DNA of 64,000 bases from a phage. Positions 47,268 through 48,604 of this stretch are shown piece after piece; position 1 is the first letter of the stretch, and each line of letters opens with the position of its first letter. The position numbers were made by a program, and so were the translations under genes. The notes beneath the pieces were generated by a model, which was not told where the DNA came from, made no database searches, and saw only the letters and a list, made by a program, of their open reading frames with translations. The DNA lies in the sequence record PZ402305.1, one strand, 5' to 3'.

Positions 47268-47921
47268 CTATACCAGACTTTGAAGGTATTTGTCAAGGGC
47301 TTCTTGATCACCTTGACAAACATAGCAACGGAAGTCTTGAGCCGAAGGTTGTTTATTTTCATCCCAGTCCCAATAAACATTACCCTTATAACGTGAACCA
47401 GGAAACTCAAAAGAGGCTGTATGTGTAATGTATCCTGGGCCACCAGTGAAATCACAGAATGAGAATTGGGGGTATGCCGCCTTTACTGCCTCAATAAACC
47501 AAGCTTTACGATCTAAAGCTTCATTGATGCTATACGCATGTCTCTCCATTTCTTCCCACGTTTTCCAGACACTTCTCTCATCAGGAGAAAAGACAAGCCA
47601 TTCTGGAAGGTACAGAGTGTCATAGTAATCATCATATTCGATCTCGGAGGCGCACGAAGCTGACTCCTCCAGTTTTGAGTAATCAAAAGCAGAATATACC
47701 CACCAACCATCTTCCAGTAAGGCTTTGATAGGGACGAAGCCTTTATCAGCATATTGATCGAATTGTTTGACACGGTGGCTTGTGCAGTCTTCAAACTCAC
47801 ATTCTAAACGATATGCACCTTTTCGACGAGCCTCAAGACCGTGTGTACTGAAAATAACAACACTTCCTTCACCATCATTACGATCTACTTGATAAGCAAC
47901 TACTGGTTTTGAATTTGACAT
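47268..47921 (-). CDS. hypothetical protein (217 aa)
   Basis: Track ORF; stop/start overlap with upstream gene. Confidence 0.6.
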   Translation of the reverse strand: MSNSKPVVAYQVDRNDGEGSVVIFSTHGLEARRKGAYRLECEFEDCTSHRVKQFDQYADKGFVPIKALLEDGWWVYSAFDYSKLEESASCASEIEYDDYYDTLYLPEWLVFSPDERSVWKTWEEMERHAYSINEALDRKAWFIEAVKAAYPQFSFCDFTGGPGYITHTASFEFPGSRYKGNVYWDWDENKQPSAQDFRCYVCQGDQEALDKYLQSLV

Positions 47922-48604
47922 TATTTCTCCTTATCTAGAAGATTGTTAGACAAAAACACGGCACGAGCAAAACCACGTGCGGTTAGGGATCTAAGTTGTT
48001 TTGTTTTTGCACTAGCTCCACCTAAGCTTTTCCAACCCCAGAAGCAGCCTATATGATCTACTGGTTTCTTCACTGGTTGAACAAAACCATTGCCGTGCCA
48101 AATACAAGTTTTCTTTGTATACCCATCACGGGTAGGCATTTTAGGATGAAAGCTTCCTTCCTCTTCAAACAAATACCCACCATATTCATAAGGATCAAAG
48201 TAAAAATCGGGTTTACGCCATAGGGTTGAAAGTTTACCTACTGGGTTCTCAATCATCCAAGGAACATTATATTTGTTACCCAAAGCTTCCACTACACGAA
48301 TATTAGCTAAAGCTTCATCTAATTCCTCTGTGCTACGTTCGTGTTTGCTACCACTACCTGCTAACATAGTGCAAGGTGGAAATCCAAAAATAATATCGGG
48401 TTTAGGTATCCCATGATCTTCAGGGTTAAATGTAGAATCTATCCAGGCATTCACATAGGTTATGTTTGGGTGCTCCATCCTAACCTCGTATTTACCGTGA
48501 TCCCCTTCATCAGCGTTTACACAAAAACACTTGTGACCTGCTTCGGCATAACGTAACACCATGATCCCAGATCCGTCAAACATAGACAAAACTGTTTTAC
48601 TCAT
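47921..48604 (-). CDS. C5-cytosine-methyltransferase-like catalytic-core protein
   Basis: FDGSG (motif I-like), GFPPCTMLAGSG (PC catalytic motif), MIENPVG (ENV-like); about 227 aa, too short to carry a target-recognition domain; start at ATG after GGAGGGG. Confidence 0.55.
   Translation of the reverse strand: MSKTVLSMFDGSGIMVLRYAEAGHKCFCVNADEGDHGKYEVRMEHPNITYVNAWIDSTFNPEDHGIPKPDIIFGFPPCTMLAGSGSKHERSTEELDEALANIRVVEALGNKYNVPWMIENPVGKLSTLWRKPDFYFDPYEYGGYLFEEEGSFHPKMPTRDGYTKKTCIWHGNGFVQPVKKPVDHIGCFWGWKSLGGASAKTKQLRSLTARGFARAVFLSNNLLDKEK

Follow-up and report, generated by a model that had tools for sequence, protein, structure and literature searches.

The 227-aa protein encoded on the minus strand at 47921..48604 of the window, that is, of the whole stretch of 64,000 nucleotides that was analysed, is very probably an autonomous AdoMet-dependent DNA cytosine-5 methyltransferase and a member of PHROG 757, a family of short 'Dcm-like' enzymes of phages. 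This kind of protein is already known: it is annotated as a DNA methyltransferase, and its phage family, which is named and very large, has one member that has been studied experimentally.

The window comes from a phAPEC8-like Phapecoctavirus and its bases 47000-50000 match phAPEC8, TSP7_1, and UP17 at 99.0-99.5% identity. The RefSeq annotation of the corresponding phAPEC8 gene, gp194, is 'DNA methyltransferase' and its counterpart in phage tuntematon is annotated as 'Dcm'. The gene and the signals around it are as follows; the two hairpins and the promoter-like site come from a consensus scan and are pattern matches only.

47921..48604, minus strand: CDS of the predicted short Dcm-like C5 cytosine methyltransferase, 227 aa, corresponding to phAPEC8 gp194
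48607..48613, minus strand: Shine-Dalgarno-like GGAGGGG, ending 2 nt upstream of the ATG, read from the sequence
50017..50000, minus strand: terminator-like hairpin, at a place where phAPEC8 has a terminator annotated
49994..49966, minus strand: promoter-like TTGACA-17-TAAACT, following the hairpin
47228..47252, minus strand: terminator-like hairpin with an 11-bp stem and a T tract

The ATG at 48604 was preferred over an upstream GTG at 48646 because the GGAGGGG sequence backs the ATG. The longer version of the open reading frame that starts with the GTG has no such Shine-Dalgarno-like support and the relatives begin at the same Met as the ATG version. The start of the methyltransferase gene overlaps the upstream gene by 8 nt and its stop codon overlaps the start of the downstream gene (TAATG). 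The hairpin together with the promoter-like site at 49966..50017 is probably the start of a transcription unit, and the hairpin at 47252..47228, which lies 3' of the gene downstream of the methyltransferase, is probably its end. Taken together these patterns suggest a four-gene minus-strand unit that extends from 50017..49966 to 47252..47228.

When the protein was compared with the family libraries it matched PHROG 757 ('DNA methyltransferase') over residues 1-225 with an E value of 1.8e-84. By tblastn it was found in 1488 phage records, and an exhaustive HMMER search gave 965 clusters at 50% identity (E<=0.001). Among the 150 best representatives of these 965 clusters the lengths were mostly 200-260 aa, and the window protein is a single domain of 227 aa that ends just after the RSxTPRGFAxAVF block as the members of PHROG 757, with their typical length of about 210-260 aa, do; judged by these sequences, the protein is short because its family is and not because it has been truncated. 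The general libraries responded much less. Pfam PF00145 matched over motifs I-IV with 11.6 bits, its cut-off being 22, NCBIfam gave no match to the window protein, and the family profile found nothing at E<=1 among the PDB sequences. One relative, P0064, was above the PF00145 cut-off (27.3 bits), over motifs I-IV only. Since the PF00145 score of the window protein is below the cut-off, its assignment as a C5-methyltransferase rests on PHROG 757 and on the fold, and the sub-threshold PF00145 score together with the empty NCBIfam result indicates that the family is a divergent branch, one that is not picked up by the general libraries.

The original prediction had read motif I, a PC motif and an ENV motif in this protein in the order typical of C5-methyltransferases, and all three were indeed found in the canonical order. 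Their positions, and those of the segments that follow them, are given below.

48566..48580, minus strand: motif I, F9-D-G11-S-G13, AdoMet-binding loop, from sequence and conservation
48368..48382, minus strand: motif IV, F75-P-P-C78-T, with the codon of the catalytic Cys at 48371..48373
48242..48250, minus strand: motif VI, E119-N-P121, the equivalent of ENV, with V122 coming next
48098..48121, minus strand: Y162-T-K164-K165-T166-C-I-W169, final strand of the sheet, where canonical enzymes have motif VIII (QxRxR), from conservation and the model
47993..48097, minus strand: variable segment H170..L204, 35 aa, at the position of the target-recognition domain (TRD), candidate mini-TRD, from family comparison
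47954..47992, minus strand: C-terminal block R205-S-L-T-A-R-G-F-A-R-A-V-F217, motif IX- or TRD-loop-like, from conservation

Conservation of these motifs was examined in 38 close relatives with 60-74% identity and in a broad set of 121 family sequences taken from the 50%-identity clusters. In the close relatives D10, G11, S12, and G13 of motif I and C78, E119, N120, and P121 of motifs IV and VI are invariant. In the broad set motif I is reduced to F, D, S or T, and G13, and the first Gly is variable. The catalytic residue C78 is present in all 121 sequences, and it aligns with C81 of M.HhaI, C71 of M.HaeIII, and C82 of the Dcm of phages K42 and KarlJaspers. The residue directly before it varies even in close relatives, where FPDCT, FPSCT, and FPQCT are found; the invariant Pro of motif IV is the one two positions before the Cys, and the Pro-Cys pair itself (P77), which the window protein has, is seen in 89 of the 121. 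E119, which aligns with E128 of KarlJaspers Dcm, is present in 121/121, N120 in 116/121, and P121 in 120/121. Altogether C78, E119, N120, P121, K164, T166, W169, and R205 are each kept in at least 96% of the 121 diverse relatives. At the acidic positions of motifs II and III, where the family has D in 102/121 and in 76/121, respectively, the window protein has N30 and W54.

It had also been predicted that the protein is a C5 catalytic core without a target-recognition domain, and this was borne out in the sense that there is no canonical TRD. From the position of motif VIII (W169) to the last conserved block (R205) there are 35 aa in the window protein, compared to about 106 aa between R165 and R272 of M.HhaI, the reference sequence of which is identical to PDB 10mh_A; in M.HhaI this stretch makes up the small domain. 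Compared to M.HhaI and M.HaeIII, which are type II enzymes of PF00145, the phage protein is about 100 aa shorter and has no separate small domain or TRD, whereas between 'YGG' and the K-K-T strand it has about 17 residues more than the canonical type II enzymes. The alignments made with hhalign against M.HhaI, one with a profile of the close relatives and the other with the 121-sequence profile against 120 HhaI-like sequences, could be relied on only in the stretch that begins at motif I and ends near the 'YG' of motif VII/VIII. In the window protein and in the family the QxRxR of motif VIII is absent and Y-x-K-K-T stands at that position, with Y162 in 121/121 and K164, T166, and W169 each in 120/121 of the broad set; a Lys of this strand may stand in for the Arg of motif VIII.

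The segment that is equivalent to residues 170-204 is 26 to 70 aa long in the 121 relatives (median 36), and inserts of about 70 aa are present at this position in some of the family. The column entropy of residues 181-200 is 2.5-2.9 bits per column, as compared to 1.3-1.9 in the conserved blocks that flank them, and it is below that of residues 31-70. Because this segment is variable, prone to insertions and located at the position of the TRD, it is a candidate mini-TRD. The C-terminal block that follows is again well conserved (R205 in 120/121, G211 in 117/121, and A215 in 113/121) and after it there are 10 residues in the window protein, which is also the family median. What this block corresponds to in M.HhaI can be read in two ways. 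In an ungapped profile scan along M.HhaI the block RSLTARGFARAVF scored nearly equally at residues 272-284, where it resembles motif IX RKLHPRECARVMG (z 3.8), and at residues 240-252, the TRD loop RIYSTRGIAITLS, which it fits just as well (z 4.1). Motif X, GN(A/S)V, is absent in the window protein, and no GN[AS][VIL] was seen after the C-terminal block in the 14 longer relatives that were inspected. The extensions of the longer relatives are an HNH domain, an HTH domain or sequence without an assigned domain, and ten C-terminal fragments submitted to Pfam gave no match to PF00145.

An AlphaFold2 model built on the alignment of 38 sequences was confident, with a pLDDT of 87.7 and a pTM of 0.87, and it consists of seven strands with flanking helices followed by three short C-terminal helices; in this model a strand of the sheet lies at residues 166-171 and a C-terminal helix at residues 210-219. 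The original prediction would have been contradicted by a fold other than that of class I methyltransferases or by the lack of the catalytic Cys, and what was found is a class I C5-methyltransferase fold with an invariant Cys. The structural matches to the model were DNMT3B with a score of 13.5, the prophage methyltransferase 3g7u with 12.2, the C5-carboxymethyltransferase 8yf3 with 12.1, DNMT3A with 11.8, M.HhaI with 11.1, and M.HaeIII with 10.9, and generic Rossmann and methyltransferase folds ranked below the C5 enzymes. Foldseek concurs in placing DNMT3A and DNMT3B at the top. The sequence identity of the phage protein to the catalytic domains of DNMT3A and DNMT3B is 14-19%, and it is about 50-60 aa shorter than the crystallised DNMT3 domains of about 270-290 aa. 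Unlike the phage protein, which has no motif X, DNMT3 keeps motifs IX and X, and its working form is a dimer or tetramer with DNMT3L.

The strongest evidence for the function comes from a homologue whose activity was examined in work on retron Ec86, which appeared as a preprint (bioRxiv 10.1101/2023.08.16.553469) and was later published (Wang et al., Cell Rep 2024;43:114857). In that study all the escapers of phage K42 from retron Ec86 carried lesions that lay within, or immediately upstream of, a gene of 711 bp for a 'Dcm-like C5 cytosine methyltransferase', and when K42 dcm alone was expressed from pBAD in E. coli it was toxic only if the retron was present (bioRxiv 10.1101/2023.08.16.553469). 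LC-MS showed, in vivo and as reported in the preprint, that 5mC in msDNA was high when K42 Dcm was expressed without any other phage gene, whereas it was low with the quadruple mutant C82A/E128A/K175A/K176A and with the empty vector (bioRxiv 10.1101/2023.08.16.553469). Changing either C of the CCTGG in msDNA abolished defence; the CCWGG specificity was assumed in this study and the methylated base was not mapped (bioRxiv 10.1101/2023.08.16.553469).

Phage K42 is 95% identical to the BASEL phage KarlJaspers (Bas06), the genome of which is MZ501090. In MZ501090 the gene annotated as Dcm-like has the same length, 711 bp, and the residues C82, E128, K175, and K176 bear exactly the same numbers in its product as in K42 Dcm. 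The window protein and KarlJaspers Dcm are 50% identical in an alignment that spans their full length (E=1e-71), and C82, E128, K175, and K176 align with C78, E119, K164, and K165, so that all the four residues changed in the quadruple mutant are conserved. KarlJaspers Dcm (236 aa) and the window protein (227 aa) are similar in size and have in common FDGSG, PPC, ENP, KK, and the RSLTPRGFARAVF block. In both, the motif II position is N and the motif III position is W, two features in which the clade of the window protein departs from the broad family. The N30 and W54 substitutions are thus compatible with activity, because the active KarlJaspers/K42 enzyme has both of them. The phages themselves belong to different families, KarlJaspers being a siphovirus of the Drexlerviridae and the window phage a myovirus of the Stephanstirmvirinae, and the gene neighbourhoods differ as well. 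The sequence of the variable loop also differs between the two proteins and for this reason the target sequence of the window protein may differ from that of KarlJaspers Dcm.

The original prediction had allowed that such a short enzyme may need a partner from the same operon or may act on a substrate other than DNA. A partner would make it one half of a split C5-methyltransferase, with a second polypeptide of the operon supplying the recognition domain and motifs IX-X. Such enzymes exist, since in M.AquI and M.EcoHK31I the core lacks the C-terminal motifs and an adjacent second polypeptide is needed, and a core without a canonical TRD and motif X, translationally coupled to both of its neighbours by the overlaps described above, would fit this arrangement. 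The neighbours, however, do not include a candidate. Four of them are proteins of 313 aa (DUF7277 and DUF7275), 131 aa, 217 aa, and 167 aa, and the other two are a Sir2-like protein and a protein of 90 aa. Apart from Sir2 they all fall in PHROGs of unknown function, and no methyltransferase-like Pfam match was found in them, the 131-, 313-, 217-, and 167-aa proteins included. Moreover, when these six neighbours and the methyltransferase were searched by tblastn against the loci of PaulSarasin, KarlJaspers, and NPat (three genera of Drexlerviridae), FFH2 (Vequintavirus), phage 26 (Kagunavirus), and a Vibrio phage, which represent five other phage lineages, the methyltransferase alone matched and no homologue of a neighbour was seen beside it. 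Thus, unlike in M.AquI and M.EcoHK31I, a partner gene is neither present nor conserved beside the phage enzyme, and its only recurring context in other phages is a replication or early module, where it lies beside a helicase, primase, AAA ATPase or polymerase. The homologous K42 Dcm, moreover, is active in E. coli without other phage genes. The lack of a conserved neighbour and this activity from a single gene make a partner encoded in the operon very unlikely, and we consider a split enzyme highly improbable. The suggestion of a substrate other than DNA, be it tRNA or other RNA as for DNMT2 or a free nucleotide, has fared no better, because the 50%-identical homologue raises 5mC in msDNA. In addition, no DNMT2-type CFT motif was found in residues 170-227 of the window protein and the DNMT2 structures ranked below the DNA methyltransferases in the structure comparison; action on a substrate other than DNA is therefore very unlikely.

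It may also be asked whether the protein methylates at all. DNMT3L has lost its catalytic residues, and the phage protein could by the same token be a dead regulator or decoy that binds DNA or AdoMet; the absence of motif X, the N30 and W54 residues at the acidic positions of motifs II and III and the sub-threshold PF00145 score would agree with this. Against it, the Cys, ENP, and the K-x-T strand are kept across the 121 diverse relatives, and this invariance argues for selection on catalysis, while the KarlJaspers/K42 enzyme is active with the same N and W. A catalytically dead protein is therefore extremely unlikely. A further alternative is an active DNA C5 enzyme that adds something else in place of methyl, such as carboxymethyl taken from carboxy-SAM. 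The match to the C5-carboxymethyltransferase is no better than those to ordinary methyltransferases, none of the neighbours looked like a CmoA-type carboxy-SAM synthase and the homologue yielded 5mC by LC-MS, so that we see hardly any chance for this alternative. An autonomous DNA cytosine-5 methyltransferase is thus the reading that we prefer.

The activity of the window protein itself, its target sequence and its role are what we infer from here on. By the canonical mechanism of C5-methyltransferases, AdoMet would be bound at the FDGSG loop and the target cytosine would be flipped out, whereupon Cys78 would attack C6 of the flipped cytosine to form a covalent intermediate, Glu119 of the ENP motif would protonate N3, and the methyl group would be transferred from AdoMet to C5. 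In place of a TRD, the variable loop of about 35 aa, the C-terminal helical block and the catalytic loop would presumably contact the DNA. This mode of contact would be like that of DNMT3A and DNMT3B, which are the closest structural matches and have very small recognition domains. Among the known enzymes DNMT3A and DNMT3B have the smallest recognition domains, and they depend on dimerisation; since they are also the best structural matches, dimerisation of the phage enzyme is, by analogy, a reasonable guess. A possible, if rather doubtful, extension of this is that the family is a distinct minimal autonomous class, about 100 aa shorter than M.HhaI and without a small domain or motif X, in which the loop of about 35 aa reads the DNA, perhaps in a dimer as in DNMT3, and in which the specificity is short or unusual rather than the assumed inner cytosine of CCWGG.

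An anti-restriction role is generally assumed for the orphan methyltransferases of phages, and the likely role of this one would be orphan methylation of the replicating phage genome, which would blunt host restriction. According to the BASEL study, the methyltransferases that Drexlerviridae carry bear no simple relation to how resistant these phages are to restriction. CCWGG occurs 95 times in the window as compared to 64 +/- 8 expected; thus it is not avoided, and this count is weakly informative, being compatible with protection and proving nothing. A predicted cost or side effect, by analogy with K42, is that the activity would be sensed by retron Ec86/Eco1. As to specificity, MG1655, the host in the retron study, carries its own Dcm. 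Since the controls of that study nevertheless had low 5mC in msDNA and the retron was not triggered by itself (bioRxiv 10.1101/2023.08.16.553469), the phage enzyme may differ from the host Dcm in its site or in its access to it. Our search of the literature on methylation or restriction in Phapecoctavirus and on the specificity of this family gave nothing beyond the work on retron Ec86.

For the phages themselves, these results mean that phAPEC8-like therapeutic phages probably carry phage-made 5mC, which would affect how readily they are attacked by restriction enzymes and type IV restriction, as well as the behaviour of their DNA in nanopore and bisulfite analyses. The gene may also, by the analogy with K42, expose phAPEC8-like phages to retron Eco1/Ec86. 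The current understanding of these enzymes is not overturned, and the residual interest lies in how an enzyme of 227 aa picks its target; a natural minimal C5-methyltransferase that binds DNA and AdoMet without a TRD or motif X would be useful for enzymology and engineering.

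At the sites where acidic residues of motifs II and III bind AdoMet, the window protein has Asn (residue 30) and Trp (residue 54):
48515..48517, minus strand, codon of residue 30 (Asn), motif II position
48443..48445, minus strand, codon of residue 54 (Trp), motif III position
Asp occupies these positions in 102 and 76, respectively, of the 121 relatives in the broad family. The Asn and Trp pair is common to the clade of the query, which includes the experimentally active KarlJaspers Dcm. In the whole window CCWGG occurs 95 times compared to 64 +/- 8 expected from 100 dinucleotide-preserving shuffles, none of which (0/100) reached 95.

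In some members of the short C5 family, such as the relatives P0238 and P0204 and the BFVD entry A0A6J5SE15, the enzyme is joined to another domain. The fusions seen are to an HNH_2 nuclease domain (348 aa), to an HTH_31-like N-terminus that is weak (E=0.0015, under the Pfam cut-off), and within a helicase-containing protein of 1397 aa.

Genes and sites near the C5 methyltransferase gene include the following:
48994..49935, minus strand, gene of a 313-aa protein that matches DUF7277 and DUF7275 (E=1.2e-75)
45933..46733, minus strand, phage gene for a 266-aa member of the Sir2 family (PF02146, E=2.3e-19; phrog_2162)
49966..50017, minus strand, promoter-like site TTGACA-17-TAAACT (10 of 12 matches) adjoining a terminator-like hairpin
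47228..47296, minus strand, promoter-like site TTGACA-18-TATAGT (11 of 12 matches) adjoining a terminator-like hairpin
The 313-aa gene is probably the first of the C5 methyltransferase transcription unit, and the Sir2-family gene lies in the next unit downstream. Both promoter-like sites were rated strong and, because they adjoin terminator-like hairpins, the sequence suggests compact early transcription units.

The window also encodes a second miniature methyltransferase, the counterpart of phAPEC8 gp177:
55015..55524, minus strand, 169-aa protein with motif IV and a phrog_799 match
Its motif IV is NPPF (IIITNPPFKLA), of the amino-methyltransferase type, and it matches phrog_799 'DNA methyltransferase' with E=2.8e-59; Pfam gave EcoRI_methylase alone, below threshold. 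In the Vequintavirus FFH2 an N6/N4 methyltransferase lies three genes upstream of the short C5 enzyme:
L008 (FFH2 methyltransferase locus) 879..2204, 441-aa N6/N4 methyltransferase (PF01555, E=1.7e-41)
Orphan methyltransferases are thus stacked in several of these phages.
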